A model generated the notes under the pieces. That model worked only from the letters and a program-made list of their open reading frames with translations. It was not told the origin of the DNA and searched no databases. Source: Eledone cirrhosa (taxonomy: Eukaryota). From it: a DNA stretch of 64,000 nt. Below, one piece after another: positions 26,940 through 61,489 of this stretch (position 1 is its first letter; the number at the start of each line of letters is the position of its first letter). The stretch spans positions 135,346,001 to 135,410,000 of the forward strand of contig OZ024744.1 of the NCBI GenBank assembly GCA_964016885.1, given 5' to 3'. The position numbers and the translations under genes were made by a program.

Positions 26940-26981
26940 GTAATTTCCTTTCCTCTTCCTTTTTACCTCTTCAGCACCAAC

Positions 26982-29900: not shown

Positions 29901-30378
29901 TACCCGTTCGGGACAAGCTCTACAGACACGGGCGCCCGGGTAGGGACCCCTCGAAGAAGATCTGTCCAAGATGCGTGCGTGACGAGGAAACCGTCGCACA
30001 CGAATTCGTACACTGCCCGGGCGTTGCTGACCTGTGGGGCTATGTAGAACGACTACTGTCGCGGGTGGGACCAATCCGGTTGACCACCGAGAACATTGTC
30101 ACAATCAAACCGCCTCCCCCTTTCAAAAACGAAGGAGAGGCGGTTTTCCTCTGTGTGATAGCCATGGCGAAAGAAGTTGTATGGTGGACAAGGTTGAAAG
30201 GGCTGAGGTCAGACACCTATCTCTCCGGCCAACAACTGGTCTTTTTTTTCAAGTACCACTTTAGAAGAAGGATCAGAATGGAGAGAGAGGTGCTCTACCC
30301 CAGCAAGTTTTATGAAAGATGGTGAAAGTAGCGAGAATGGCCCGAGTGAATGGGCCTTCTCTCTATATCAGCCTGTAG
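26982..30378 (+). pseudogene. LINE ORF2 (APE endonuclease, reverse transcriptase, zf-RVT-like finger), disrupted
   Basis: NARG, GDWN, YLDRF and SDH APE motifs; KSPGLDG, RPITLLN, QGCPLS and YADD RT motifs; frameshift near 29640 into the 29570-30325 frame (CPRC..HEFVHC); second shift near 30322 (VKVARMARVNGPSLYISL*); apparent short deletion after GWIAAM. Confidence 0.92.
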
Positions 30379-31868: not shown

Positions 31869-32497
31869 AGCTGTATTACACGCACCCTCCCTATTTTTTG
31901 TTTTATGTTATCTCATGTTCTCAATATTAGGGTATGAATATTGAGTTTTGTCATATGTTAATCACCACCATGACTGAATCTTAACCATCTTCTATGTCAG
32001 GGTATGTCATGCATCATCCTATTTTACTGTAAAACTTAACTCTGCACCTCTGAAATATGTATAAAATATAATTGATCACAAGAATATCTATTTTGTTAAT
32101 ATTTTGAATTAATATTAATAACTCTGGAAAACTTTAGTGGTCCCCAACCATTTCTGCTACATGCCCCTCCTCAATCGAAAATATGTTTATGGCCCCTTTA
32201 TTATTAAAACAATCCGAGCCTTGTAAAAGTGTTATTACTGTAAAATAAAGTAGAAACCCTTTATTTAAACAAAGCTGCGATGCAGCGATGATCAAAACAA
32301 ACCCCCAAATGTAGAACGACAGATGTTATTACATTGAGCTATTTATCTTACTGGTAATAAGGTAGTAATAAATTACTGTCTTTCACTGTTTAGGGTTTTA
32401 AATATATATAACTATAAAAGGTTTTAGTATATACATAACCATAAATAGTATCCTTAATACTATTAACTGCTCCATACTGTTGAGCTGAATTACCAGT

Positions 32498-34952
32498 ATG
32501 CTGATCAAAGACCAACTGCCTATGTCAACCAAGAACATACCAATACCATCCAAGAATACATATGAGAAATTATTGATCGACAGTGTAAATTCCTTTATCA
32601 ATAGAGTGAGATGGAGGACATTCCATTATGATAAAAACAAATCTAACAAGGTTAATAATACTAACAAATTTGACTCCTTCGGCTTTAAAACCTTTAGAAG
32701 TCCCCCCCCCCCTCATAACACACTACTAAACTCCTTTGAAAATGACCTAATAAAACTAGTTAAGAACATTAAATACAAAAAGCACCGTAATAAAAACAAC
32801 ACCTTCTTAAACAAACTTAACACCTCTATTAATGAATTCAAAACTATTAATAGAATTATTGTACATGCGGACAAAACTAATAACATATACAGCCTAGATT
32901 ATAATACTTATAGAAAGTTTATATATAATGAACTACATAAAAGCTACAAGAAAACTACTATGAAAAACTTAGAAGATATTAATATGGAAGGCTATAATAT
33001 AGTGTCGAAACTAGGACTTCAGAGACATACACAACCATATACCCCAAACCCCCCTAGATTCTCTCTGAAGGACCATAAGGAGGTCTTCATTAGCAACCCC
33101 TCGATTAGACTTATCTGCCCTTCCAAGTCTGACATTGGCATTATCAGTAAGAACATTTTAGATAAAATCATCCCACAGATTAAACACAAGATATACCTTA
33201 AACAATGGGGAAATACGGGTGAAGTTATTTAATGGTTCAAAGATATCAAGGATAACAAGGATAAAAAATGTATTCAATTTGATATCAATTCATACTACAC
33301 CTCTATTTCCCCTATCCTATTAAATAAACACTAATCATGGCCATGGACAATAGTGACCTGACTAGACCCCAGATTGATGTCATACTTGCGGCCCGTAAAA
33401 CCGTAATCACCTTTGAAGACCAATTATGGACCCGCAAAGATACGCAAAACAACTTCGACATAACCATGGGATCTAGTGACTCGGCGCAGGTCACTGATTT
33501 GGTCGGCCTATATTTACTTAACGAAATCCATAAGGACCTTCCATACCTCAACGGTGGTTTGTACCGCTATGATGCACTTCTACTTATAGACTATAAAAAA
33601 TTCAATATAGAAAGAACTAGAAAACTATTGCACAAGACATTCAAAAACTATAACCTTAGTATCACCATGGACAAAAACACTAAAAACGTTAAATTCCTCG
33701 ACGCCACCCTCTGCCTAGACTCAAAGATATATACACCTTTCCATAAACCTAACGAAAAACTCATTTACGTAGATACCAAGTCTAACCACCCTAGATCTAT
33801 ATTAAACTCTATCTCTAAGGGAGTATCCAATAGAATCTCTAATCTATCCTATGACGTAAACATATTTAGCAAAAACTCGCAATATTATAATCAGGCATTA
33901 GCTAGATCAGGCCATAATATAGAGATCGAGTTCCTACCTACAAAAACACATAGCTACAACATTATTTCGCACAATATGTCCATGAGTAAATTTAGTAATA
34001 AGAATAGCAACCACACATACACGGAGGATGCCAACAAAAGTAACCCACACCACAGAAATTACCATAAAACCATAAAAGGAAACAACTCACCAGACATAAA
34101 AAACAAAAATAGAAGAAGAAATAATACATTTTTCAACCCTCCTTTCAATCTAAACGTCTCTACCAACCTACCTAGGGCTTTCTTCTCACTCCTAGATAAA
34201 CACTTCCCATATGGCCACAAGTACCATAGCCTTTTAAACAAAAACTATTAAAATCTCCTACTCTACTACGCCTAACATAGCATACCACATAGCTAGTAGC
34301 AATAAAAGAAAAATTAATTCTTACTTCCAACAAACTAAATCACAACAGGCGATAAACCTTCAAAATAACATTATATCAAATAACCCTGATAACAATAGTA
34401 ATAATAGTAATAGGACTAGTGTAAGCAATAATGCTGGGAACGACAACCCCCATAACCATAATCCTATAGCTACCATCCAGACTTCTACACAACATAATAA
34501 CCGGCAGACTAACACCCAGAATAATTGTAACTGTAGATCAAATAGAACCTGCCCTTTAGATAAAAAATGCCTAATCAAGGATATCATATACTCATGCACC
34601 GTCACAACTAGCAACTCTTCTGAAACCTATATAGGCTCTACTTCAAACTGCTTCAAAACCAGATACAATTTGCACCTCCACTCTTTCAAAAAACACAGTC
34701 TAGCCAACTCCACTTCACTATCTAGCTACATACACTATCTAAAAACTAAAATAAATCTTATACACCTAAATGGGAAGTGATAGGTAACGCGACATCGTAC
34801 AAACCACCTAATAAATTTTGTAACCTCTGTCTACTAGAGACCCATACTATTATCTTCTCAAACCATAACCTCCTTAATAAAAAATCAGAAGTGTTCGCGT
34901 CTTGCCAGCACCGCTTCCGACACTCCTCCCAAAACTTTAAACCCAATATATA
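32498..34952 (+). pseudogene. PLE RT + GIY-YIG endonuclease ORF, disrupted
   Basis: STKNIPIP N-terminus, IQFDINSYY, FDITMGSSDSA, GLYRYD (catalytic RDD changed to RYD at 33565-33573), CNCRSNRTCPL linker, IIY..YIGST, CNLCLLE; stop at about 33230 and several frameshifts. Confidence 0.9.
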
Positions 34953-36383
34953 ACAATGTCAGACTTGAACCCGTCACCAACTCTAGCAACAAACCTCAAG
35001 GGCACACCTTACACCACATCTCCACACTCAATGATCCACCTTAACACAAATAGTGACATCCTTCTAGAACCTTTTACCCTAGATATATCCTTATGTTCAT
35101 CTACTTTTGGTATAATTGCCTTCAATTACTTAGACTACATTACACCACTATATAATTAATGTAAACTTTAAACACTGAATTGGTTATGCTAATGTTGTTC
35201 TGTGTATGGAGTGCCATCATTGGATAAATGGAAGATTAATTAATTAATTTATTTATTTATTAATATAAGAGAGCTATATAACCTATATGCTGAGTACAAT
35301 GAATTATGTACAAGTGATATATGAGTTATACATACATGTATGACTTGATGGTCGGATTAGTGACATTGTAAATGAGAATTGATCTCTGGTCTACCCTAGT
35401 GATATTTAACTTTGCCATGAAATCAGACATGCACTGACCCAGAGCTTACCAGGAGTTATATATAGAAGTGATTCTAATAAAACCCTACCAGGTTCTGCGG
35501 GTAGACTACACTTACAAAGATCATTGATCTGGGGATCTGACTCTTCATGTGGAATATTCAGTTGTGGCACTCTATAGAGGGTAATCATCCTAATATGAAC
35601 ACCTTTAGTACTTCTTGACAGACTAGACTGTAATTTAAAGATAGGATACTTAAATTTAGAAACTGTTTATAACCTTATATGATAGGGACTCATTTGGGAT
35701 AATAAATTTGGTTATAGAAATCAGCTAGTTACCTCCCCTCACGCATTAACTTCCCTTAATCACACACACACTTCCGGAAAATAATACGATGTTAATTCTC
35801 GCAACAAAAACAACCTGCTCTATAATATTGGATTAAAGAACAACAAGCTGTAATATTCTAACCTAATTCATCAAGCATCCAATATTGAATCATCGTTGAT
35901 TATGTGAAGAACATATAATCTATATATTACATTTCCTTGATTGTGAAAATGGTGGTGTATACGAAAACCATAACACTGTTTTGCTTCTAATTTTTAATAT
36001 TTCTCTGCACACAAGCTTCTATATCATACTTTACCAATACAACCCCCATAATACTCTTGATTGCCCGCTTAAAGTGCTTGTATTCCATATAACACCTTGC
36101 CGCACTATAATCTTATATAAATAAGTGCATGCCCCACGTGTAACTATTGCCTACACTAACTACTTCTAACTATCCTCTTGTATTATCTTCATAAACTGCC
36201 AATGTTATATTTTAACTTTAACTTTGTTTTAATTTTCTTTTAATATGACTTTAAACTTTGAATGTAAATTGCCATGCTAAATATTATAATTGATGTCAAC
36301 CCACTGTGCATCAATATATACATATGTTTCTGTATGTCTCTTGTGTTGAAAAGGAGGTCATGTATGTAAACAATCATTGAAAA

Positions 36384-36435
36384 ATTGCTCCGAAGACTCC
36401 AAACCTCGGTTTGGAAGAAACAATTGTAAGCTAAT
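36384..36435 (+). ncRNA. Minimal type I hammerhead ribozyme motif (PLE family 1), U4C core variant
   Basis: gct-CCGAAGA-c-tccaaac(ctcg)gtttgga-a-GAAA-CAATTG (palindrome)-TA-agc; AATAAA follows. Confidence 0.7.
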
Positions 36436-36642
36436 AAATGGTTTGAACAGAACTTTGATTCCTGTAATTTCTATATAACTGCTCTGTAGAACAACTGATG
36501 TTATTACATTGAGCTATTTATCTCACTGGTAATAAGGTAGTAATAAATTACTGTCTTTCACTGTTTAGGGTTTAAAATATATATAAAGGTTTTAGTATAT
36601 ACATAACCATAAATAGTATCCTTAATACTATATATATATATT

Positions 36643-36774: not shown

Positions 36775-36926
36775 ATATATATATATATATATATATATAT
36801 GTAGGAGCTGAGTTTTATTGTAGTACAATAGAGCAATGCAGATATCGGATAAGTAGCACTCTACAGTTTGTAGGACTGGAGTATAAATAATATATAAGAT
36901 CAAAAGATGGTTAAAAGAGTTCCATG

Positions 36927-36997
36927 TATTTTATTATGCGCATTTCAAAAACAAATATCATCATGCAATAACATTTGCGTTTTCGTCAGATAAAATA
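36927..36997 (-). ncRNA. Minimal hammerhead ribozyme motif (PLE family 2, copy A)
   Basis: Minus strand reads tattttat-CTGACGA-stem II-GAAA-TGCGCA-TA-ataaaata. Confidence 0.85.
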
Positions 36998-38706
36998 GGG
37001 AGACATGATATGAAGGTTAAAACACACTTGTGAATAGTGCAGTTTTAAATCAACATATGAAAAGTAGTTTTAGATTGATGTGTGATATTTGGGTGAAAAA
37101 ATTGAGGGGGTGGGGGTGGAAAGGATGAAAAAGAAGAGGAGATAGGAGGAGAGATGGGTGATAGAGAGAGAGAGATAGCTTTTATAACTGAGAAAAATAT
37201 TGTTTTACATAGAGAGGTTGAAAAACCGTTGGAAGATAATATATAAATTAAAAGAATTTGAAAATTAACGAAGAGAAAAATGTTAGAATAATGTTAAATT
37301 AAGGTTTGTATATTTAAGGGTTTAATAATATGTGCGATGGAAAGAAATTGTTGATATGTATTATTAAAAAATATAAAAATATAGCAATAGTAATGTAATT
37401 AAGGATATATTGTGAAAGAAGTAGAAGAGTGGATGAATAAGTGTAATATGTATAAGTTAGATGAGCATGAAAGGGAGAAAAAAATAATGAATTGAGGATC
37501 AATAATCTAACGTCAAAAAAATGTTTATGTTTACGAAGGATTTTTTCAAGGTGATATGAAGTAAGAATATATTGTGCTGAGTAATAATGATAATTGAGAA
37601 GTATCTAGGAAGAAAAGGTACAGATTAGAGGTTAGAAATTAAAATTAGAAATTAAATTAGTGCCTTAAATAAATGCTTCCCTCCCTCACATATCTATAGT
37701 AAAATATTTAACAAACACACTATAAAATTTTCCTATTCGACCTCCTCCAACATCTCCAACATTATCTCTAAACACAACAATAAAATACTAAATACTAAAT
37801 CTCTTCCTTCCAACACTGAATATCATAATAATAGTAATAGTACTCCCGACGTCATTGTTAACTCTAGGCTAATTTCTGCAAACCCAAATTCGTTAAATGT
37901 TCTTAATCCCATTCTAAATCAAGAAACTATTATTCCTATCGTAAATAACTTCTCCAATCCAATTCCTTCTATAAATAACACTAGGTCACTTGTTAATAAC
38001 TCTGTTAATTTCTCTAATCGCAATTGCAATTGCCCTGCTAAAAATAAATGTCCTCTCAACAACCATTGTCTTGAAAAAAACTTAATCTACGAATGTAAAG
38101 TTATAACTGACACCAATTCCTTTACCTATTTTGGCTCCACTTCCACCTCCTTTAAAGCTCGTCTTTATAATCATCATTCGTCTTTTAAATACCAACTTAA
38201 AAGAACCAACACGGCACTCTCAGAACTCATATAGTCCTTGAAAGACAAAAATATTAACTATAACATCTCTTGGAAGAAGATTTGTTCTGCTTCTCCATAC
38301 TTGAATAGTTCTCTATCCAAGACATGCAATCTCTGTTTATGTGAAAAATTTACCATTATCTCTAATTTAGATTCTATAATAAATAGACGCACTGACTTGT
38401 TTTCTCTCTGCTTGTATAAATTCCACAGAACATTATAGTATACAGCTAATCAATTTAAAATCCTTTTCTCAAAGGCACATATATATTTCTTTAAAAATAT
38501 ATCCATCTTTCTACCTTATTTCAATGTTATTTATTATTCATTATATAATACTAGTTACTCATTCTATATCACTCCTATTTATCACTTCCCTTTCTTTCTT
38601 TTTTTCCTTTTTTCTTTTTCTTTTAATTTCTAACCTCTAATCTGTACCTTTTCTTCCTAGATACTTCTCAATTATCATTATTACTCAGCACAATATATTC
38701 TTACTT

Positions 38707-41690
38707 CATCATCATCATCATCATCATCATTTTACGTCCGCTTTTCCCTGCTTGCAAGGGTGGGGCGGGTCTTATTCAACACAGCATCTCTCCACTCGTC
38801 ACGGTCCCTCGTCATCTCCACCGTGAGCTTCAATGATCTGAGGTCTGTTCTCACCACCTCCGCCCATGTTTTTCGTGGTCTACCTCTACCACGTCTTCCT
38901 TCAACTGGCAATTCCTGGCACTTCTTCACCCATCGGTCATCCTCCATGCGCATCACATGTCCATACCACCTCAGTCTCCTCTCCCGTACACTGCATTCTA
39001 TCCCTCTCAGACACAGTTTCTCTCTCAACACATTTAAGCTGGGTCGTTCACGCACATTTACACTGCACATCCAACGGAGCATGCTTGCAGTTACTGCCCA
39101 TGTCTCACTACCATGCAGCATCACGCTCCTCACATAGGCATCATACAACCGGCCTTTCGTACGCAGGGAGAAACCCTTCTTCGTCAACAGAGGAAGCAGC
39201 TCCCTAAACTTCTTCCAACCCGTCCTTATTCTAGATACTATGGCCTCGGAATACCCTCGTCCCATGCTAATCTGATCTCCTAGGTACCGGAAGCTATCCA
39301 CCACTTCTATAGCGCCTTCCTGCATTTGAAAAATGTGCCAATCAATGCGACTTCTACTGTCTAATTTCCCTGTACATCTACTGCATACATATTTCTCCCT
39401 ACCTGTTAGTTTGCCTGCTATCCCGCTACATCTCTTGTGTACCCAGGATCTGCATTGTGTGCATTTTATATAATTTATGCCAGTTCCTTTTCTGCATATC
39501 GAACATGGCCATTTCCCTGACGGAATCAGGGTTTTGTCCTCTTTTCTACTCATCAATACTTTTGTCTTAGCTAGATTCACTCTCAGTCCTCTTGCTTCCA
39601 ACTGCTGTTTCCATAGCCAGAATTTATTCTCTAGCTCCTCTACTGATTCTGCTATAAGAACCAGATTGTCAGCATAGAGACGTTCCCATGTACAGCCAGT
39701 CTTAAACTCCTCTGTTATGGCTTGGAGGACTATAATGAACAAGAGCGGGCTGAGGACCGAACCCTGATGTACTCCTACTTGTATCTGGAATTCCTCACTA
39801 AACTCCATTCCTACCCTGACTTTACTGAGAGTACCTCTGTACAAAGTTTGCACTGTCCTCACAAGCCATTCCTCAACACCTAGCTTCCTTAGGGACCACC
39901 AGACGACAGATCGGGGTACCCTATCAAAGACCTTCTCTAGGTCAACAAAGGCTAAGTATAGTGGCTTATTCTTCTCTAAGAACCTCTCTTGCAATTGTCT
40001 CACCAAGAAGAGGGCATCTGTTGTACTCTTCCCGGGCACAAAACCAAACTGCATCTCATCTAGTTTGACCCTTTCTCTAATTAGTTGTGCTAAAATCCTT
40101 TCTGCCACTTTCATAACCTGATCTATCAGTTTTATCCCCCTATAATTGCTCCTCTCCAAAGCATCCCCTTTACCTTTGTAGCAATTTATGAGAATACTGC
40201 TGCACCAGTCTTTGGGTATGACATCACCATATATAGCCTGATTGATGATGCGTGCAACCAGTTTAGTGCCTACGTCCCCTGATGCCTTCAGCATCTCAGC
40301 AACTATTCCCGATGGTCCGGCAGCCTTACCATTTTTCATTTCCCTAATCGCCTCTTGGACCCTATATTCGTCAATCTCAATAGCTCGTGCCTCTGTCGGA
40401 TCTACCAAGGGTAATTTCTCTCTCCCATTTGTTCTCCACATTCATCAGTCTCTCATAATGACATTTCCAGGCCTCCTTTTTCTGATCATTCGTGACACTA
40501 AGTACACCGGCATCATTCCGGACACATTTATCTCCAACAACATCCTGATTTGCATTGACACACTGCCTTGCAATGTGGAACAAGGCACGCCTCTGATCTT
40601 CCCGTCGCAGAACATTGGCAAACCTCTTACTCTCTGCCTCCCTGCGTGCTAAGTACACCTGACGTCTAGCTTCTCTCTTAGTGGCTGTATATTCTTCCCT
40701 ACTCCCATCCTTTTTCCAAGCCTTCCATGCTAGTCTTTTGTCTCTAATAGCCTTATCTACTGTGCTGTTCCACCACCAGGTTAATCTCTGTCTGGTTGGA
40801 GCTCTGCTCCAGCTACAAGTTTCATCAGTAGCCTGCAGCAAGTTGTCACGTAGGAAATTCCAGTTATTATCTATGTCATACGTCTCTAAATCGTCTTCTT
40901 TTTCGTCATACACATCTTGAGGGGCTTTCCTAAATTTGAGTTTTAGTGAAAGGTCTTTTAGCTTCCAGACCTTTCTTCTCCACACCTTCCTATATGTCTC
41001 ATTCCATCTCTTGCTTACTGAGATATCACTAACAACTAAGCTATGCTGTGAAGTACATTCTTCCCCAGGGTATGCCTTGGTATTAGACACTATCTGCCTG
41101 TCCCGCTGCCTAACTAGTAAAAAGTCAATCTGGCTTATGTGCTCACCAGATTTGTAGGTTATTAGGTGATTGGCAGGTTTCTGGAAGTTTGTGTTGCAAA
41201 TAGTCAATGTACCTGCATCACAAAATTCAAGAAGTCTCACTCCTTCTTCATTTCTTGAACCGTAACCGTGCCCACCATGTACTCCAGTGTAACCATCCTG
41301 GAGCTGTCCAACATGACCATTGAAGTCTCCTGCTAGCATAACGATGTCTCCGTCCTCTGTCATTGCGGTTGTTTGCAAAAGTTGCTTATAAAAGCAGTCT
41401 TTCTCATCTTTGCCTAGGCCTGCTTGGGGAGCATAGGCCGAGATGATTGTCAGTAGTCTCCTACCTACAACTAATCTAAGCTTAATTATTCGATTACTAA
41501 CTCGAACTACCTCTATTGTCTTATTGATCCATTTCTCAGCCAGGAAATTGCCTACTCCCCCTAACCCATCATCCTTACATACCCAGAATAGCTTATAGCT
41601 AAGACGTTTGCCTACGACTAGTCTCGCAGAGGCACCTCTCCATCTCACCTCTTGCACGCAGCACACATCCACCTGCCTTCTCTCCAGCAT
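38707..41690 (-). mobile_element. RTE-clade LINE, slightly 5'-truncated, one frameshift, (ATG)n tail
   Basis: APE ORF 40377-41723 (VQEVRW, SAYAP, GDFN, QIDF, SQH) and RT ORF 38732-40441 (GKAAGP, QFGF, QGSVLSP, YADN, RGRGRPRKTW); (CAT)8 at 38707-38730. Confidence 0.93.
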
Positions 41691-42286
41691 CACCTTGAAA
41701 AAATCCTTCGTAAACATAAACATTTTTTTGACGTTAGATTATTCATTCTCAATTCATTATTTTTTCTCCCTTTCATGCTCATCTAACTTATACATATTAC
41801 ACTTATTCATCCACTCTTCTACTTCTTTCACAATATATCCTTAATTACATTACTATTGCTATATTTTTATATTTTTTAATAATACATATCAACAATTTCT
41901 TTCCATCGCACATATTATTAAACCCTTAAATATACAAACCTTAATTTAACATTATTCTAAAATTTTTCTCTTCGTTAATTTTCAAATTCTTTTAATTTAT
42001 ATATTATCTTCCAACGGTTTTTCAACCTCTCTATGTAAAACAATATTTTTCTCAGTTATAAAAGCTATCTCTCTCTCTCTATCACCCATCTCTCCTCCTA
42101 TCTCATCCTTCCTCATTATACTCCTCCCTCTCCACTTTTTACTCTCATCTCCTCCTCTTTCCCCCCCCCCCCCTCAAAATAAAATATTTTTCCTAACATC
42201 ACACATCAATCTAAAACTACTTTTCATATGTTGATTTAAAACTGCACTATCCACAAGTGTTTTTTAACCTTCATATAATGTCTTCC

Positions 42287-42357
42287 TGTTTTATCTGATG
42301 AAAACACAAATATTATTGCATGATGATATTTGTTTTTGAAATGCGCATAATAAAATA
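42287..42357 (+). ncRNA. Minimal hammerhead ribozyme motif (PLE family 2, copy B)
   Basis: tgttttat-CTGATGA (42295)-stem II-GAAA (42338)-TGCGCA-TA-ataaaata. Confidence 0.85.
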
Positions 42358-42385
42358 CATGGAACTCTTTTAACCATCTTTTGTT

Positions 42386-42433
<48 letters not shown>

Positions 42434-42438
<5 letters not shown>

Positions 42439-42606
42439 GTATCGGTAGAGGGTTGGACGCCATGCTTTCTAGCATAGTTACGTCCCTTTACAGTCTGAGT
42501 TCAAATCCGGCCGAGGTTAAGTTTGCCTTTCATCCTTGTGGGGTCGATAAAATAAAGTACCAGTAATGTACTGGGTAATTGCTGGCCTTGTGCCTAAAGT
42601 AGAAAC

Positions 42607-42610
<4 letters not shown>
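42434..42610 (+). mobile_element. tRNA-derived SINE
   Basis: Near-identical to 36643-36774, with the 3' tail ...gcctaaagtagaaacaatt. Confidence 0.8.
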
Positions 42611-42670
<60 letters not shown>

Positions 42671-43076
42671 CTGCTATCGCTAGCATGTTTATATATATAT
42701 ATATATAAACATGCTAGAGATAGCAGTCATAGACGAGATAAGAGGAAGAGGGACATATATATACATTAACAGAGAAAGCTTTTAGATATATATATATAAC
42801 AAAGGAATTGTGGTAAGGAACCAGATGAACCATAACGCACCAGAGTACTCAATACTTAGGGTAGTAGAGTGGGAAATAGGAAAAGTATGACCCCGACGGG
42901 GTCATACTTTTTCCTATATATTTATATAATCTGTTTTAATAAATATATATATATAGAGAGAGAGAATTAGTATATCTACCAACATATGCGTACAGATGTA
43001 CACTAATACTTATTATTATTATTTTTATATGAGTCCCTAGTGTCCACGCTTTGCCTGGAGACTTAGGTGAGAATAG

Positions 43077-43158
43077 ACTCCCTGATGACGTAATGAATTC
43101 TCGATGGTTACATTACGTAACTATCTTTATCCCATTACAGAAAATAATTAGTCGGAGT
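43077..43158 (+). ncRNA. Hammerhead ribozyme motif (family 3, copy 1)
   Basis: actcc-CTGATGA-c-gtaatg...cattac-a-GAAA-ataattag-TC-ggagt. Confidence 0.8.
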
Positions 43159-43615
43159 GAAAATTTTAGTAAGTTAATTTTTAATTTTTTTTTTAATTTT
43201 CTTATTTTATGTCTTTCATATAATTGTTCTGCATCCTCCTGCATCGAACCACCTAGGTACTATGACATAACTTATGTATTTGCTAGCATTAGTGTACATC
43301 TGTACGCATATGTTGGTAGATATACTAATTCTCTATATTTATCTCCAAATTATTTATTTGTTGAGCAAACCTGCCAAATCCACTACTAATTCATTGGTGT
43401 GGTAGTAGGCTTTTGTCATCTTACCAACCCACTCCTTCCGACTAGCCTCAGTGTCACGTGATTGATTCTTTAGAATCTGCCATTTGACCAGAGACAGCGA
43501 ACTTTTTCAGTGCATGGAATTCAGTCCCCGCTAGCTGTTCCATCCACCGAATTATTATTATTTTTATATGAGTCCCTAGTGTCCGCGCATTGCCTGGAGA
43601 CTTAGCTGAGAATAG

Positions 43616-43697
43616 ACTCCCTGATGACGTAATGAATTCTCGATGGTTACATTACGTAACTATCTTTATCCCATAACAGAAACTAATTAGTTGGAGT
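43616..43697 (+). ncRNA. Hammerhead ribozyme motif (family 3, copy 2)
   Basis: actcc-CTGATGA-c-gtaatg...cataac-a-GAAA-CTAATTAG (palindrome)-TT-ggagt. Confidence 0.8.
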
Positions 43698-43756
43698 GAA
43701 AATTTTAGTAAGTAAGTTAATTTTTTATTTTTTTTTTAATTTTCTTATTTTACGTC

Positions 43757-43760
<4 letters not shown>

Positions 43761-43830
<70 letters not shown>

Positions 43831-43968
43831 ATAATAATAAATGTGAAGACTAAAATTTTAATGAAGTGTAGCAACAAGGGCGGTGCCCCAGCATTGCCTC
43901 AGCCGGATGGCTGGAACAGGTAAAAGAGTATATATATATATATGTGTGTGTGGGTGTGTATGTATGCG

Positions 43969-44055
<87 letters not shown>

Positions 44056-44220
44056 ACACACACACAGACAGAGAAAGAGGGATAGGGAGAGAGAGAGAGT
44101 TAGTATAATAAATAAGAGAGACTGGTTTTATTCGTACATCTTCATTTTATTACGTAATTCCATATATACATACGTTCTGAGGTATATATTGATTTAGGAA
44201 CTCAAAATAGTCTCTTACAA

Positions 44221-44306
<86 letters not shown>
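43761..44306. repeat. Cluster of (TA)n, (TG)n and (AG)n microsatellites
   Basis: Direct reading: 43761-43827, 43929-44100 and 44225-44306. Confidence 0.95.
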
Positions 44307-44307
<1 letters not shown>

Positions 44308-44639
44308 TACGTTCTGTACTTTTCTGGTCTTTGGCTGCTATTTCTACCATGCATATTCCTACATCGAATGTATAAAACACAACCTGGCTTTGGTAGCAAA
44401 GTTTGAGTTGAAAATATGACTTTTATACCCCTCCCCGAGCAATTGGGAATATATATGAATTTTAATTGAAATGTCGCTAAATTAATAAATGGGTGTGATT
44501 TAAAACTAAGGTAAACTGAAATAATTACACCGGTAACATAATTAATGTTACACCGGTATTTCACTAACAGATTATTAGACATGTGGCTCTAACAGGTAAT
44601 GTTTCTTTTTGCCGTCTATGTTGGGTTCTAAGTGTAGTT

Positions 44640-45045
44640 TGGCTTGCTAGGGGTCATACACCTTCATACACATACACACACACACTATATATAAGTAATC
44701 TTTACAAGAGAACGATTTATAACAGACATCACAGTGATATGGTTCCTCTCCTGTATATATTAGTGTCTAGTGAAGCCACAACATTTAGAGAAGCAGTTAC
44801 CACAGACATCACAGTGATATGATTCCTCTCCTATATGTGTTAGTGTGTAGTGAAGCTACAACATTTAGAGAATGATTTACCAAATATATCAAAGTGATAT
44901 GGCTTCCCAGCTGTATATATATGTTTGTGTGTAGTTAATGTAAGATTCAAAGAGAATGATTTCCCTCAGATGTCAAAATGATATGTATTTGTATTCTCAT
45001 TAATTCATAAATTTGAGGGAATGATTTATCACTGATGTCAATGTG
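44640..45045 (-). pseudogene. Decayed C2H2 finger repeats downstream of the ZNF stop codon
   Basis: Minus-strand remnants such as IYTGEEPYHCDVC at about 84 bp spacing, out of frame and with stops. Confidence 0.65.
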
Positions 45046-45528
45046 TTATGATTTCTCTTCTGCATGTATAAGTTTGTGAGTAGTTAGGCTACTTTTCCCA
45101 GAGAATGATATACCACAGATATCACAGTGATATGGCTTGTCTCCTGTATGTATACGTTTGTGTGTAGTTAAGTGACCACTTACAGAGAATGATTTACCAC
45201 AGATATCACAGTGATATGGCTTGTCTCCTGTATGGGTACGTTTGTGGCTAGTTAAGTGACTAATTTGAGAGAATGATATACAACAGATACCACAGTGGTA
45301 TGGCTTGTCTCCTGTATGGGTACGTATGTGCTTAATTAAGGTACTACTTAAAGAGAATGATTTGCCACAGATATCACAGTGATATGGCTTGTCTCCTGAA
45401 TGTATATGTTTATCATTCTCTGAAAGTAGTTCCTTAGAACTACTTTCAGAGAATGATTTACCACAGATATCACAGTGATATGGCTTCTGTTCTCTAACCT
45501 TCGTCATCTCACCAGGAATACTAAACAT
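45046..45528 (-). CDS. C2H2 zinc-finger protein (cephalopod-expanded type); four intact fingers and one broken finger; possibly a pseudogene
   Basis: Repeated HTGDKPYHCDICGKSFS; an upstream ATG at 45574 (MENKLTKKIKCETV) is 1 nt out of frame; acceptor-like ttatttcAG at 45921-45922 on minus. Confidence 0.8.
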   Translation of the reverse strand: MFSIPGEMTKVREQKPYHCDICGKSFSESSSKELLSENDKHIHSGDKPYHCDICGKSFSLSSTLIKHIRTHTGDKPYHCGICCISFSQISHLTSHKRTHTGDKPYHCDICGKSFSVSGHLTTHKRIHTGDKPYHCDICGISFSGKSSLTTHKLIHAEEKS

Positions 45529-46240
45529 TTTCGACTGTTTCGCATTTAATCTTCTTTGTCAATTTATTTTCCATAATGATTTCTTCTTGAACAGAAAATA
45601 CAAATGTTTTACTTGTAATATTTTTTATATTATATTCCTAAAAAATATATCCTCTATATTTCCCTCAACTGTAATTTCTGTTAATATCTGAAGATAATAT
45701 AAACTTATGTTTCATCCAAGTTTAGTTAAAATACAAAATCATCTCATAGTGAAGAATATAAACTCAGTTTTGAGGAAATATTTCACAGTAATTCGGCGAC
45801 AGATTTATATAAACAGTGTTATATGAGTTGTTTCGAAAGTTTTAGTCTTAAAATGATGACAAATAGAGGTGATGTATTCAAGATTGAAAATAATAATTTA
45901 TCCAAATGTCATCTGATATTCTGAAATAAGAAAGAAACAGTATGAGATAATACAGAATACTTTAGAAGCAGAGATAGATTTAACAGTGGAAATTTTATAT
46001 TTCTATATTGGTAAACTGTAGATATCAACTTTCCTGTCCAGAGTAATTCTCTCCAATGTAAGCAGTGGTATTCCAGCATGCTCTATAAATTATATCCCTC
46101 TATCCCTTCAGAGGTCTGCTCTATGGCAGTTTAGCAAAAAAATTCATTCTTATAGGACTTATAAGAAAGAAACAGTATGAGATAATAGAGAATACTTAAA
46201 ATACAGAGATAGATTTAACAGTGGAAATTTTACAATCTTC

Positions 46241-46374
46241 CCATATTTCCCAGCGTTGAAGACGTTACTTTTTCCCTAATATAAGTCTCAAAAATCTACC
46301 ATACGTCCTGGAGGCCGAGGGTTGTTTATTGTTTTTTTCAAAAATTTGGTCGTCTTCGGCGCCAGTAAATACGG
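46241..46374. mobile_element. Small Tc1/mariner-type MITE
   Basis: Imperfect TIRs ccatatttcccagcgttgaagacg and cgtcttcggcgccagtaaatacgg followed by TA; it splits a local duplicate of 45926-46027. Confidence 0.55.
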
Positions 46375-46717
46375 TACATTGGTAAACTGTAGAAATATAC
46401 CTGTGTGATGTTTATTTATATAAACCAAGGCTATATATATGTCAAACTACAGCTGCACCATTACAATAGCGGTGTCATCTAGTACAGGGCCCCAAAACTG
46501 TGGTAACCTTGTGAGATGGGTTTGGCTCGGTCGACTGGCTCTCTCCCCATCCAATACCAGTCCACATAACTATGGTAACCTCATGAAAAGGGTTTGGCGC
46601 AGCTGGCTGGCCCCCCCCCTCATGATGGTGTCACCCAATACCAGGCCCCAAAATTATAGTTCCACTGTGAGATGGGTTCCGCACAGCCAACTGGCTTGTC
46701 CCGCCTCATAACAGAGC

Positions 46718-47190
46718 CATCCAGTTCCACACTGTAATCATGGTTCATGTTAGGAAGAGAATCCAGCTGTAAAATACCCGACCAAATTCACAGACCTCAC
46801 CTGGGCAAGGTGTGACACGTGGCCAACCCTGGCCAGACTTGTCTCCTGGTATGGATGACCCACCTAACCCATGCAAGAATGGAAAAATGGACGCTAAATG
46901 GTGATGACACAGACATATATATATATCCCACCCACACTGGACATGTAAGAGACACAGCAAAAAGCACACAGCCCATACTGTAAAGTGGACATATGTAGGT
47001 GTCTTGGGAAATACACCCAGTCCACACTGTCAATGTGGTTGGCGTTAGGAAGGGCGTCCAGCCGTAGAAAGCTAGCCAGTAACACCCCTATATGAGTGAG
47101 ACATGGTCACCTGACCCAAATTGCCTCTAAATGGGATCTGTCTAACCCATGCTAGAGTGGAAGATGGACGTTAATTGATGATGATGATAT
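46718..47190 (+). mobile_element. Two SINE 3' fragments with RTE-type tails
   Basis: GGCGTTAGGAAGGGCGTCCAGCCGTAGAAA core; tails ACCCATGC..GGAA..GGACG.TAA.TGATGATG at 46864-46908 and 47143-47189. Confidence 0.65.
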
Positions 47191-47397
47191 ATAATAAAAT
47201 GTTGTAGTTTGCTTGAAGCATTCTATATAATATATAACGTTGAAAGAGATAGAAGGCTAAACAATGCAAAATGGACTGTAAGATGAGGTAAGGAAAAGTA
47301 AAAGTTACCTGGTAATCTTTGTTTTGTTTTTTTGTTGTTGTTGTTCTTTTATTTGTCCAATATTGCGGGACCTAAAAGTCCTTTCTTCAGGGTTTAA

Positions 47398-47756
47398 CCC
47401 TTTAGCATTTACATTAGATGATGATCATCATGATTACTACATATATACTATTATATTTCCATGGTAAAGACTTTACCTCACATAACATTTACATTACTAT
47501 ATATATACTATTATATTTTCACAGTAAAGTCTTTACCTCACCTAATATCTCACATAACATTTACATCACTCTATATATACTATTATATTTCCATGGTAAA
47601 GTCTTTACCTCACATATGTCACATAATATCAAAACTATGAGATTTTGATATAATTTATATTGAGAACAATACCTTAATATCAGTAAGAGTGGTCAGTTAC
47701 GGCTGGTTTGAACAGAAAAAGGGGTCAGAATTCTGGCCGGTTTAAATGCTAAAGAG
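47398..47756. mobile_element. piggyBac-type MITE with internal ~56 bp repeats
   Basis: TTAA|CCCTTTAGCATTTA ... TAAATGCTAAAGAG|TTAA: 14 bp TIR and TTAA target duplication. Confidence 0.8.
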
Positions 47757-53931: not shown

Positions 53932-54012
<81 letters not shown>

Positions 54013-54038
54013 CAAAAGATGGTTAAAAGAGTTCCATT

Positions 54039-54109
54039 TATTTTATTATGCGCATTTCAAAAACAAATATCATCATGGGATGATATTTGCGTTTTCATCA
54101 GATAAAATA
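54039..54109 (-). ncRNA. Minimal hammerhead ribozyme motif (PLE family 2, copy C)
   Basis: Minus strand reads tattttat-CTGATGA-stem II-GAAA-TGCGCA-TA-ataaaata. Confidence 0.85.
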
Positions 54110-54730
54110 GGGAGACATGATATGAAGCTTAAAAAACACTTGCGAGCAGTGAAGTGTTAAATCAACATATGAAAAATAAAATAAGATGGATATATGAGAT
54201 TGGGAAAAAAAGAAGGAAGGGGGAAGGAAAAGGTAAGGAAGAGGAAGAAAGAAAATAATAAGAAAAAAATATATAATAAGGAAAGGATGACGGAGGAGGA
54301 GTATAAGAAGAAAGGATGAGAGAGGAGGAGAAATGAGTGAGAGAGAGATAACCTTTAATACTGAGAAACACTGTCTCACAGAAAAAAAACCGTTGTAAGA
54401 TAATACATAATTAATGAGGTTTATGAATGGTGATGTTTATGATTAAAGAAAAAGGAATTAAGAATAGTATTTATTTAAGGTTTATATATTGAAGGGTTTA
54501 ATAATATGTGCGAAATCGAATTTATTAAAATGTATTATTAAAATAAAAAATATTAAGGAGATAAGGTGAATGAAGAAAAGTTAAATGAATTATGAACTTA
54601 GAGGAATTAGTTAGGGTCCAAGTTTGTTTCTATGTATTGTAATAGGAAAAAGTAAATAATAGGTTTAATACGAGCACGGAAAGAGAGAAGAAAGAAGAAA
54701 ATTCAAGGAAGAAAAAATATATACCGTCAA

Positions 54731-54761
<31 letters not shown>

Positions 54762-55470
54762 CATGTTTACAAAATTTACTAATGGTAATATTAGTATATA
54801 TTAAAAATAAAATTTGTATGGCCAAGAATATAAGGAAAATGCTATAGTGAGTTATAATATGAATTAAGAAGTAATTGAGAAGTAAAAGTTACAGATTAAA
54901 GATTAGAAATTAAAAAAGAAAAAAGGATAACAAAGAAGAAAATAGGGGACCGCTAACGACATAGAATGAGTAAATTGTATAATATAATATACTGAAATAA
55001 GGTAGAAATATGGGTATATTTGTAAAAGATATAAAAGCGTTTGAGAAAAGAAGATTTTAAACTAATTAGGTAGTAATTAGGTAGTAAGGCTGTATACTTT
55101 ATGGAAAGTTCTATGGGATTTATGCAAGCAGAGCGAAAATAAATCCGTACGTCTATTTATTATAGAATTAAAATTAGAGATAATGGTACATTTCTCGGCT
55201 AGGCAGAGATTACATGTTCTGGATAGGGAAGAATTCTGGTAAGGAGAGGCGTTGCAAACCTTCCTCCAAGAAATGTTGTAGTTAATATTTTTGTCCTTTA
55301 AGGACCATATGAGTTCTGAGAGTGCCGTGTTAGTTCTTTTAAGTTGGTATTTAAAAGACGAATTGTGATTATAAAATCTTGCTTTAAAGGAAGTGGAAGT
55401 GGAACCAAAATAGGTAAAAGAATTAGTACCAGTTATAACCTTACATTCATACACTAAATTTTAATCAAGG

Positions 55471-56220
55471 CATTGGTTACTAAGAGGACATTTAGTTCTA
55501 ACAGGGCAATTACAATTACGATTAGAGAAATTACCAGAGTTATTAACAAGTGACCTTTATAGAAGGAATTGGATTGTAGAAATTATTTACGATAGGTGCT
55601 AAAGTTTCCTGATTTAGATTGGTGTTATGAAGTTACGTTTGACGTCGTATTTAAATTTACGGAATCTAGCCTAGAGTTAACATTGACGTCGGGTTTACTA
55701 TTGCTATTATTATGACGCTCAGTGTTGGATGGATATAATTTATTATTTAATATTTTATTACTGTGTTTAAAGATAATGTTAGAGATGTTGGAAGTGGTGG
55801 AATAAGAGAATTTAATTGTATGTTTGTTAAAGATCTTACTATAGACATTGGTTACTAAGAGGACATTTAGTTCTAACAGGGCAATTACAATTACGATTAG
55901 AGAAATTACCAGAGTTATTAACAAGTGACCTTTATAGAAGGAATTGGATTGTAGAAATTATTTACGATAGGTGCTAAAGTTTCCTGATTTAGATTGGTGT
56001 TACAAAGTTACGTTTGACGTCGTATTTAAATTTACGGAATCTAGCCTAGAGTTAACATTGACGTCGGGTTTACTATTGCTATTATTATGACGCTCAGTGT
56101 TGGATGGACATAATTTATTATTTAATATTTTATTACTGTGTTTAAAGATAATGTTAGAGATGTTGGAAGTGGTGGAATAAGAGAATTTAATTGTATGTTT
56201 GTTAAAGATCTTACTATAGA
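55471..56220. repeat. 375 bp tandem duplication inside the PLE
   Basis: cattggttactaagagg starts at 55471 and 55846; both copies end agatcttactataga. Confidence 0.92.
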
Positions 56221-58461
56221 TATGCGAGGGAGGGAAGCATTTATCTAAGGCCCTAAAAATAGTTTAGGAATATTACTAGTAATAGATAGAGAAAAAGGAG
56301 CGTTGTACCAAATCATATTTTTGTATCTAGGTCTTTTCTTTAAGTTATTGGAATGTTCATAACTAACTATTTTACTATAAGTCCCTCGATGATTGGTTTC
56401 TTTACTGTATTTAATTTTGTCATGATAACCGGCTTTGGAAAGCGCATTATTATAATAATTGGCTTTAGCGTCGAAGATAACTTTATTAGAGAATAGATTT
56501 GAGATTCTTTTTTCAACATTACTGACTATAACATTTTTAATGTTAATGGTGTGGTTAGATTTAAAATTAACATAATTTAGATTCTCATTGTCTTTATGGT
56601 AAGGGTAATATAGGCTAGTTTGACGCTGTTTTCAAATTCAATTTTTAGGTTATGGTGCTTAAATAGATCAAGTATATTATTCTTAATAATATTAAGGTTA
56701 ACTAAGTTACAGTTTAAGACAGTAAAAAGAGCATCGTCACGATAAATTCCACCGCGAAGTTGATGAATTTTCCGATTTAAAGAATTCAAAATAATACCAA
56801 TCAAGTCCGTCAATTGCGCTGAATCCGACGAACCCATTGTGATATCAAAATTGTTGGAAGTATCAGCTTTAGTCCAATATTCGTTGTTGAATTCCAGGAT
56901 AGTTTTTACTTGCGGTGAGAATGATGTAAAGTTCATATGTGGTAATGTCAGAATATTTAAATGCGAAAGATAGAGCGTTGTTGAGGAGTGAAGGCGAAAT
57001 AGAAGAATAGTAACTGGCAATGTCAAACTGAATAAATTTTTGTTTCTTTTTATTATTCAGCTAATTGAACCAGTTAATTACATCAGATGTACCAATCCAT
57101 AAATTTAAGTTAGAACGAATTAGAACGAACCTTCTTTTACCTATTTTGGTTCCACTTCCACTTCCTTTAAAGCAAGATTTTATAATCACAATTCGTCTTT
57201 TAAATACCAACTTAAAAGAACTAACACGGCACTCTCAGAACTCATATGGTCCTTAAAGGACACAAATATTAACTACAACATTTCTTGGAGGAAGGTTTGC
57301 AACGCCTCTCCTTACCAGAATTCTTCCCTATCCAGAACATGTAATCTCTGCCTAGCCGAGAAATGTACCATTATCTCTAATTTTAATTCTATAATAAATA
57401 GACGTACGGATTTATTTTCGCTCTGCTTGCATAAATCCCATAGAACTTTCCATAAAGTATACAGCTAATATCTTACTACCTAATTAGTTTAAAATCTTCT
57501 TTTCTCAAACGCTTTTATATCTTTTACAAATATACCCATCTTTCTACCTTATTTCAGTATATTATATTATACAATTTACTCATTCTATGTCGTTAGCGGT
57601 CCCCTATTTTTCTTCTTTGTTATCCTTTTTTCTTTTTTAATTTCTAATCTTTAATCTGTAACCTTTACTTCTCAATTACTTCTTAATTCATATTATAACT
57701 CACTATAGCATTTTCCTTATATTCTTGGCCATACAAATTTTATTTTTAATATATACTAATATTACCATTAGTGAATTTTGTAAACATGTATATATATATA
57801 TATATATTTTTTTTTTTTTGACGGTATATATTTTTTCTTCCTTGAATTTTCTTCTTTCTTCTCTCCTTCCGTGCTCGTATTAAACCTATTATTTACTTTT
57901 TCCTATTACAATACATAGAAACAAACTTGGACCCTAACTAATTCCTCTAAGTTCAGAATTCATTTAACCTTTTCTTCATTCACCTTATCTCCTTAATATT
58001 TTTTATTTTAATAATACATTTTAATAAATTCGATTTCGCACATATTATTAAACCCTTCAATATATAAACCTTAAATAAATACTATTCTTAATTCCTTTTT
58101 CTTTAATCATAAACATCACCATTCATAAACCTCATTAACTTTTAATTTCAAAATTTTTTTAAATTATGTATTATCTTACAACGGTTTTTTTTTAATTTCT
58201 CAGTATTAAAGGTTATATATCTCTCTCTCTCACTCATTTCTCCTCCTCTCTCATCCTTTCTTCTTATTCTCCTCCTCCGTCATCCTTTCCTTATTATATA
58301 TTTTTTTTATTATTATTTTCTTTCTTCCTCTTCCTTACCTTTTCCTTCCCCCTTCCTTCTTTTTTTCCCAATCTCATATATCCATCTTATTTTATTTTTA
58401 ATATGTTGATTTAACACTTCACTGCTCGCAAGTGTTTTTTAAGCTTCATATCATGTCTCCC

Positions 58462-58529
58462 TATTTTATCTGATGAGAACGCAAATATCATCCCATGATA
58501 TTTGTTTTTGAAATGCGCATAATAAAATA
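58462..58529 (+). ncRNA. Minimal hammerhead ribozyme motif (PLE family 2, copy D)
   Basis: tattttat-CTGATGA (58470)-gaacgcaaatatcat(ccc)atgatatttgttttt-GAAA (58510)-TGCGCA-TA-ataaaata. Confidence 0.87.
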
Positions 58530-58650
58530 AATGGAACTCTTTTAACCATCTTTTGATCTTATATTATTTATACTCCAGTCCTATAAACTGTTGAGTGCTA
58601 CTTATCCGATATTTGCATTGCTTTATTGTGCTACAATAAAACTCACCTCC

Positions 58651-58716
<66 letters not shown>

Positions 58717-60586: not shown

Positions 60587-61489
60587 TTACCCCCGCCAGA
60601 TTTTTAAAACATAAAAATCGAATGAAACATGTATAGAGTAAGATGGCGAGCATGTAAGAGGCATGCAAATTATGAGAAAAAATAATGTTTGCAATAAAAG
60701 GAAAACAGCAAAATATATGCATGCAAAAATCAATGATAGATATCAAGGTAGCCAACCGCTCTTGGCCAGAGAACTATCTATCCATCACTCAAAGATACAA
60801 TGTAATCAAAGTAAGAGAAGAGGTCAAAGTTCAAATGTTCAAAATACAGTTCACATGTGTGCAATCACATGACAGCAGGAAAGAATGCATGTGGTTTCTG
60901 GTCTGTGGTATAACGTGAAATTTCCAACCTCCGAAGGGAATTTCTCACAGGAAGAGTGCTGCAGAAATAAATTCTCTGGCTTGTTCTGCTGGTTTTGGTT
61001 GTTGATGAAGCTGTGTTGTTGTTGTTGATGTTGTTGTCTCGCGGAGTGAGCGTATTCGATGTTTAAAATCACAGTAAAAATTTTCACAGAAAAATTGAGT
61101 TGCGCAAAGTGCTAGAAATAATAGCCAAAGTTGATGGTCGATGTTGAGAATGCGTTGACTTGGAAGGGTCAAGAGGCCAGCGACCAGAGAAATAAGCATT
61201 CTGAATAAATGCGCAGTTTTCAACGGCAAATTTACGTGGTAAATTTTTAAACCGGCAAATAGAAGAATATAGCTTGGTGGAAAGAATAAGCAATAGTTGA
61301 GATTCAGCGAAAATAAGTGTTCATGTTGAAATGTGTAAAAAAAAATCAAATTTCTTTTTTTTTTTTCTTTTAAAATGTTCGTTGTAAGAAGAAACGAAAA
61401 ACATATATATACATCCAGTGAAATGGTAATGAGAGGTACATAGTATTACAATAAATAAATAAATAAATAAAAAGAACAACAACAAAAAA

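Follow-up and report, generated by a model that had tools for sequence, protein, structure and literature searches.

Penelope-like elements (PLEs) are the sister group of telomerase reverse transcriptases (RTs), and their priming, their integration and the role of their hammerhead ribozymes are stated to be unclear (Craig et al. 2021, PMC8557442). The Hydra clade of PLEs is defined by a single ORF, which combines an RT with a C-terminal GIY-YIG, and by the motifs RWK, DKT and CxCX5C (PMC8557442). A one-sided tail of 30-40 bp is known in PLEs (PMC8557442; PMC3846280), inverted arms were ascribed by Arkhipova et al. (PMC3846280) to self-priming on antisense RNA, and PLE-type hammerheads cleave poorly in vitro (Cervera and de la Pena 2014, PMC4209133). 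The unit of metazoan non-LTR retrozymes is typically 150-450 bp long (Cervera and de la Pena 2020, PMC7229834). Li et al. (bioRxiv 10.64898/2026.07.22.740005) described units of 51-972 bp from 31 vertebrates and 4 invertebrates, and no mollusc is named in the part of this preprint available to us; eight of nine Xenopus retrozyme dimers failed to cleave in the same study. RtcB circularises other animal retrozymes in vitro (PMC7229834). Both retrozymes and their proposed origin from PLEs are already in print, and the use of PLE enzymes by animal retrozymes has been proposed, not shown (PMC7229834; Li et al.).

The locus described here lies in a stretch of 64,000 nucleotides of the Eledone cirrhosa genome (contig OZ024744.1, positions 135,346,001 to 135,410,000; hereafter the window), about 1.1 Mb from the contig end. 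A preliminary description had proposed a 539-nt unit bounded by two hammerheads, present in about 1.4 tandem copies and without an ORF. All parts named for the hammerhead could be confirmed, the whole set recurs 539 nt further on, and the direct arm comprises 1.39 units. The insertion consists of the following parts:

42960-43010 (42938-43010 as inverted repeat), minus strand: 5'-truncated inverted arm, which covers unit positions ~+132 to +182 and terminates at the long (L) end
43012-43761, plus strand: 5'-truncated direct arm of 1.39 units, which terminates at the short (S) end
43077-43158, plus strand: hammerhead copy 1, type I, with a long two-part stem II and C.A at its base, predicted cut after 43153
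Copy 1, stem I and core: ACTCC 43077-81, CTGATGA 43082-88, C 43089
Copy 1, stem II: GTAATG 43090-95, inner hairpin 43103-25, CATTAC 43133-38, A 43139
Copy 1, 3' core, stem III and site: GAAA 43140-43, ATAATTAG 43144-51, TC 43152-53, GGAGT 43154-58
43616-43697, plus strand: hammerhead copy 2, with the family-type palindrome and GUU, predicted cut after 43692
Copy 2, 539 nt on, variants relative to copy 1: CATAAC, CTAATTAG, TT
43154-43692, plus strand: non-coding 539-nt monomer, running from one predicted cut site to the next
43218-43222, plus strand: internal S site, TA-like, endpoint of 93/203 arms
43226-43249, plus strand: bulged hairpin 3' of the S site (YTC-stem-loop-stem-2-nt bulge-GAR), a form common to Hydra PLEs
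43273-43324, plus strand: long hairpin of the S-to-L tail
43331-43342, plus strand: internal L site, endpoint of 90/203 arms, ends blurring into TA
43343-43365, plus strand: bulged hairpin 3' of the L site, outside the L end
43761-43827, no strand: (TA)n target tract at the S end

The direct repeat (43012-43222 and 43551-43765) is 94% identical. The circularised monomer has a GC content of 36%, its longest ATG frame on either strand is 43 aa, and none of 100 shuffles folds as well (z = -4.37). Outward of its L end, the inverted arm is followed by (TC)n and then (TA)n. An inverted segmental duplicate, which spans the insertion, links window 39346-47591 to G000:C28:124533500-124541500 (98.5-99.2% identical); locus L002 represents a segmental duplication of the window locus rather than an independent insertion. 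Just past the cut site, 43168-43175 and 43707-43718 differ by a 4-nt contraction of a short repeat, which is found in ~13/55 copies and varies among the units of one insertion. Four sequencing runs of unspecified kind, covering the monomer minus its first 61 nt, gave many variant contigs with loose ends in the TA run at 43342; since genomic DNA would give this pattern, the runs were not taken as evidence of expression.

For the fold of the hammerhead, 192 copies were compared; they come from 114 loci, after the removal of 14 that overlapped or duplicated others. These copies were selected for a near-intact core, and part of the core conservation follows from the search patterns themselves. The six stem II pairs are each formed in 184-191 of the 192 copies, and the next position pairs in 5. 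Pair 2 occurs in all four Watson-Crick types (TA 111, CG 48, AT 27, GC 4) and pair 5 in two (TA 126, GC 58). In 14 representatives, the named helices are paired in 98.5% of cells with 21 double changes (0/500 shuffles; slid controls 31-54%); the number of pairs with a double change is five, which is not above shuffles (162/500). The C-A apposition at the base of stem II, already remarked upon in the preliminary description, is the family norm (189/192). The triplet is GUU in 185/192 copies and GUC in a single one, which is the one in the window. Each window copy had also been credited with one weakening change. This holds for the private C>A of copy 1, which breaks the stem III palindrome and is accompanied by the private GUC, and for the private T>A of copy 2 (CATAAC), which breaks a stem II pair and leaves stem II with a predicted probability of 0.21; GUU, however, is not a defect, because it is the family triplet. 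As both ribozymes carry private lesions, the window locus is probably a poor source copy.

Like the PLE minimal hammerheads described in the available part of PMC4209133, the family has an extra base after position 9, G10.1-C11.1 and a palindromic stem III, but it differs from them in an extra A between 11.1 and G12, which forms the C.A apposition, in a stem II with an internal loop and a second hairpin, and in repeats ~540 nt apart without an ORF. GUU is also the triplet of Hydra-1_oBim (PMC8557442 supplement). Rfam gave nothing for the locus at the gathering score and no hammerhead at E<=10. According to a crude energy estimate, the core of the monomer is paired with stem III in its best fold, the predicted off-state, and dimers are marginally favoured, by 0.6-3.8 kcal/mol, in 11/14 representatives. 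The proposed alternative pairing of cattacg with cgtaatg was not borne out: its predicted probability is 0.00 and 0.09 in the window copies and <=0.01 in 12/14 subfamily representatives. It is likely that the ribozyme cleaves in vivo; the genome bears on this indirectly, through 5' ends that gather just past the predicted cut site.

The window locus represents one insertion out of a large multi-copy family without coding capacity. Searched with the two core boxes at a spacing of 24-54 nt, the genome gave 6,069 exact matches, and the reversed control gave none; together with a monomer fold better than all shuffles, this shows that the motif is not due to chance. The exact S-end junction followed by (TA)n is matched 1,963 times (control 0), and a search with the 539-nt query gave 2,659 candidates, 40 of which were scored. 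From 128 loci, 99 complete units of 521-594 nt were obtained with a size filter of 480-620 nt; they fall into 15 clusters with 71-94% identity, and the cluster of the window diverges on average by 2.3% from the column majority. The loci are spread across many contigs. Arms reach 5.2 units, with a median of 0.94 unit and more than two units in 4/109.

With metazoan retrozymes (PMC7229834; Li et al., as far as available), the family shares tandem non-coding units that each carry a type I hammerhead, a GC content below 50%, thousands of copies, coexisting PLEs and a proposed mobilisation by PLEs. Its units of 521-594 nt exceed the typical 150-450 bp; as they lie within the 51-972 bp of Li et al., unit size was not treated as defining. 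The family differs from these retrozymes in its PLE-type ribozyme with the long two-part stem II, C.A and GUU, which Rfam misses, and in its arrays, which are short and dispersed and have both inverted arms and a fixed pair of ends; the circle here is a predicted one. Chlamys MRC1 (PMC8557442) is likewise a non-autonomous PLE derivative with head-to-tail copies, but, according to the part of that source consulted, it belongs to green algae and shares its 3' sequence with an autonomous family, and most Chlamys elements lack hammerheads.

Counted from the cut site, the S end lies at ~+65-69 and the L end at ~+180-189. Among 203 arms, 93 end at S, 90 at L and 16 elsewhere, and four are cut off. 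TA-rich DNA follows 91/93 S ends and 83/90 L ends (174/183 in all); the reading of the inverted 5' copy and the (TA)n tract as PLE-style integration marks is supported. The 79 head-to-head pairs comprise 61 with one S and one L end, two S-S, one L-L and 15 with another or a cut end; in an independent sample, chosen by its S ends, the partner arm ends at L in 34 cases, at S in one and elsewhere in four and is absent in 19. The window insertion conforms to this rule of one S and one L end. The one-sided tail between the two ends measures ~115-120 nt and is structured: of the 21 pairs of its hairpin, three change on both sides and eight on one side, with 99% of cells paired. The hairpin 3' of the L site falls outside the L end and therefore occurs in tandem units only. 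No LTR-type ends were seen. Similarities to Hydra PLEs (PMC8557442) include (TA)n targets, a hammerhead near the 3' end, partial tandems, an inverted 5'-truncated arm, a tail at one end and a bulged hairpin past the end sites; unlike them, the family has no ORF and a tail of ~115-120 rather than 30-40 nt, and it shows no close sequence match to the Hydra families compared.

The window begins with a 25-kb satellite (1-25668), which consists of a 16-bp unit, an inversion near 1800 and then 763 copies of a 32-bp unit. Further along are an endonuclease and RT frame of 1,035 aa (26940-30325), an endonuclease/RT element that is frameshifted and has a match to PHD (38732-41738), a C2H2 zinc-finger frame (45046-45558) and broken integrase-like frames (61400-63003), which we take to belong to an LTR-type element. 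PLEs are present as a broken Hydra-clade copy, PLE1 (32310-36631), as broken copies of PLE2 (36780-38690, 41689-42390 and 53995-58654) and as PLE4 (42797-42915), a Hydra-like family with frames of ~785 residues and 3.54-kb tandems (also L267). The PLE1 hammerhead at ~36386-36431 has a CCGAAGA core (C for U4) and the C.A. The PLE2 hammerheads carry a TGCGCA palindrome (42295 and 58470; 54101 and 36989 on the minus strand), and the insertion at 53995-58654 is inverted, with a short end and a long one. Near the ends of PLE4, neither a canonical hammerhead nor a match to Rfam was found; many PLE4 copies begin at one spot ~58 nt upstream of the short end, past a structured stretch, and this spot is possibly an unknown ribozyme, a splice acceptor or a start site. 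Elsewhere in the genome, hammerheads with a CTAG palindrome occur in copies 423 nt apart and in inverted pairs (L119:5207-5630; L035, L116, L138), possibly representing a third retrozyme-like element, and L064, L083, L147 and L096 hold other hammerhead motifs, whose palindromes are CCATGG or TGCA and whose stem II is very long in some cases.

The proteins of the neighbouring PLE1 carry RWR, DKT and CxCX5C, as do those of PLE4, and both match the Hydra definition apart from the change of RWK to RWR. No Pfam family matched the PLE fragments of the window, and the clade assignment rests on the motifs given in PMC8557442. Many PLE1 copies have open frames of 832 residues, as seen among the 150 scored of 29,752 PLE protein candidates. 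Intact PLE1 has a hammerhead, an S end at +42 and an L end at +206, and all three inverted PLE1 loci seen whole have one S and one L end. The bulged hairpin is found 3' of S in 12/15 and 3' of L in 10/15 retrozyme representatives, four of the five misses being due to a mis-anchored search, against a background of 3/653 other unit positions and 89/4000 random positions; the count test is partly circular, since the motif was defined on the same families. The hairpin was also predicted, and then found, 3' of the PLE4 L site with a search that specified its first half only. Among six published Hydra consensuses, it can be read by eye in three (Hydra-2_Amil, Hydra-2_Ajap and Hydra-1_Ajap, in the last twice, ahead of the consensus start); it is partial in two and absent in Hydra-1_Obim. 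In PLE1, the L-site hairpin is present in the 5' repeat only, so that copying of the ORF must cross the ends of the RNA, if the hairpin is needed.

At locus L239 (G000:C1:110737200-110742000), a retrozyme S arm stands head to head with a 5'-truncated PLE4 arm, which ends at the PLE4 L end; the junction lacks TA and contains a 14-nt fold-back. This single chimera suggests a shared reaction, and a later deletion is also possible. At L005:2191-2359, a retrozyme insertion has taken up ~170 nt of an adjoining PLE3 at its inverted junction. Neither the pattern searches nor the PLE1 loci examined yielded a PLE whose terminal repeat is close to the retrozyme: the hairpin-variant partner patterns gave 0 and 12 matches, none useful, and one of 30 PLE1 loci holds a retrozyme unit fragment, upstream of the ORF. 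A separate pattern for the end of PLE1 matched once. The helper can be narrowed to the Hydra clade, and the repeat is very probably a non-autonomous Hydra-type element. The preliminary description had proposed a non-autonomous element parasitising the neighbouring PLEs; non-autonomy is supported, whereas parasitism of these particular neighbours is not, the search having yielded no PLE with a close terminal repeat.

The reading preferred here, held with reasonable confidence, is that this hammerhead-bearing non-coding repeat with Hydra-clade ends moves as a non-autonomous retrozyme, by way of a cut ~540-nt monomer, a circle and copying by a Hydra RT/endonuclease. The ribozyme would cut at GUU, probably as a dimer via the palindromic stem III, and the cut ~540-nt monomer would be ligated to a circle. 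A Hydra protein would then bind the bulged hairpins just 3' of S and L and nick (TA)n DNA, and each target strand would prime at one site, S or L. Each cDNA would grow towards the 5' end until it runs off the cut template, or would continue round the joined circle, and so reach 0.1 to 5 units; two cDNA ends would then be joined head to head, which would yield an inverted insertion that bears an S end and an L end. For the inverted arms, the self-priming on antisense RNA suggested by Arkhipova et al. (PMC3846280) is a rival explanation.

That the template was a circular RNA is considered fairly probable, the indirect sign of it being a single haplotype in each insertion. The alternative that survives best is the copying of a non-autonomous Hydra derivative from linear RNA, either from uncut multi-unit transcripts or from cut monomers with end-to-end template jumps, without a circle; the 5' pile-up would then mark the cut end or the start of transcription. 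As this alternative predicts, many arms end just past the cut site, at 0.1, 0.35, 1.1 or 1.35 units. In the ribozyme-independent sample, 25/90 arms stop at +1 to +30, where 10.4% are expected (p=3e-6), and in later passes 11/87 stop just past the cut (3.5% expected, p=2.5e-4); the excess is not significant in the unit-chosen sample (5/45 vs 5.0%, p=0.07), and the first test over all passes gave 14/109 (p=0.03). The majority of 5' stops fall within +4 to +18 instead of on +1 itself and adjoin a short palindrome and a splice-site-like stretch. The two arms of an insertion agree in stopping or crossing (8 stop-stop, 16 cross-cross, 5 discordant, p=0.0013). The 3.54-kb tandems of PLE4, which form without a canonical hammerhead, likewise fit a linear template and count against a required ribozyme. 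However, arms of up to 5.2 units carry one haplotype, 5' truncation should shorten a linear template in each generation, and the junction triplet is exact in 185/192 copies, albeit copies selected on a near-intact core. In the youngest cluster (38 loci), divergence is 1.9% between passes within an arm, 2.2% between two arms and 4.3% between loci, and rare variants are shared in 108/299 cases within an arm, 70/265 between arms and 150/26,053 between loci; many of these pairs come from one long array (L155), and the sharing could stem from later gene conversion.

A sister family with a 483-487-nt unit, a long stem II, a CCGATCGG palindrome and a GUA triplet (1,057 pattern matches; for example L062:627-1370 and G000:C1:149205215-149210766, L246) has its ends at +80 and +188, and among 70 of its loci 28 L partners stand against one S-S locus counted twice. 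Its 5' ends pile up as well (16/97 vs 9.2%, p=0.016), four of them within 1 nt of the cut site; the concordance of the two arms is not repeated (1, 14, 5). A pile-up at a fixed ~58 nt upstream of S was considered and rejected: it predicted +22 for the sister family, and 12 stops were seen in +1 to +15 and four in +16 to +30. Arrays of the sister family reach up to 10 near-identical copies, and a 10-copy arm shows 0 differences in 7/7 adjacent comparisons, which also argues against copying from linear RNA; overall, that alternative is considered rather unlikely.

Next in order comes the possibility that the unit is the terminal repeat (pseudo-LTR and 3' UTR) of a coding PLE with rare full-length copies and that the loci are its 5'-truncated remains, a relationship that, if always present, would have overturned the preliminary description. 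The layout does match the terminal repeat of PLE1, and the reading covers 172 of some thousands of loci and 150 of 29,752 PLE protein candidates. Yet the 172 loci (114 chosen by unit or ribozyme and 58 by their S end, two of the latter duplicating other loci) contain no PLE coding continuation on the same strand, the units contain no PLE protein match, and the ORF of an autonomous PLE (RT and C-terminal GIY-YIG) is absent from the element. Each full unit is preceded by another unit, by an inverted arm or by target DNA; the 99 tandem units, with inter-ribozyme spacings within the 480-620-nt filter, are non-coding in the cases translated and have kept their size in 15 clusters. Upstream of 53 unpaired arms, the junction is TA-rich or a dinucleotide repeat in 43, a PLE frame lies in one, on the opposite strand, and no same-strand ORF occurs (0/53). 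The short-stem pattern for a coding partner matched 12 times, always to deletion copies. A coding PLE as the source of the unit is thus very unlikely. Satellite-like amplification at the DNA level (unequal crossover or rolling-circle DNA) with a vestigial ribozyme would fit the homogeneity within loci, and local satellite-like amplification of PLE ends has been proposed by Li et al., but it is hardly credible for these dispersed, short arrays on many contigs (median arm 0.94 unit, 4/109 above two units) and is largely refuted by the end structure, namely fixed 3' and variable 5' ends at (TA)n targets, along with covarying stems.

A further possibility, put forward tentatively, is double internal priming, in which Hydra PLEs and their retrozymes would both integrate from a single RNA circle made by the ribozyme; two conserved bulged hairpins would bring the enzyme to two fixed sites, one for each target strand. 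Under double priming, a circle or an equivalent re-entry would be obligatory, because the signal for the L end lies beyond the element's own 3' end. If true, double priming would jointly explain the pseudo-LTRs, the one-sided tail and the inverted arm of these elements.

New here are the two fixed 3' ends, one of each per inverted insertion, the hairpin common with Hydra PLEs, the rare variants common to all units of an insertion and the gathering of 5' ends just past the predicted cut. Neither the hairpin nor the one-short-one-long rule was found in the available part of PMC8557442. No report of a cephalopod retrozyme, of the hairpin or of the end rule was found in the literature consulted, and the words 'ribozyme' and 'retrozyme' occur 0 times in the main text of the Octopus vulgaris repeat annotation (PMC13282606).

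Through common cis-signals, a retrozyme-like element is linked here to a single PLE clade, and in the thousands of small insertions of this family the ends record the integration reaction. An in vitro test is feasible with a 540-nt template, two priming sites, the hairpin motif and the intact Hydra frames of 832 aa and ~785 aa.
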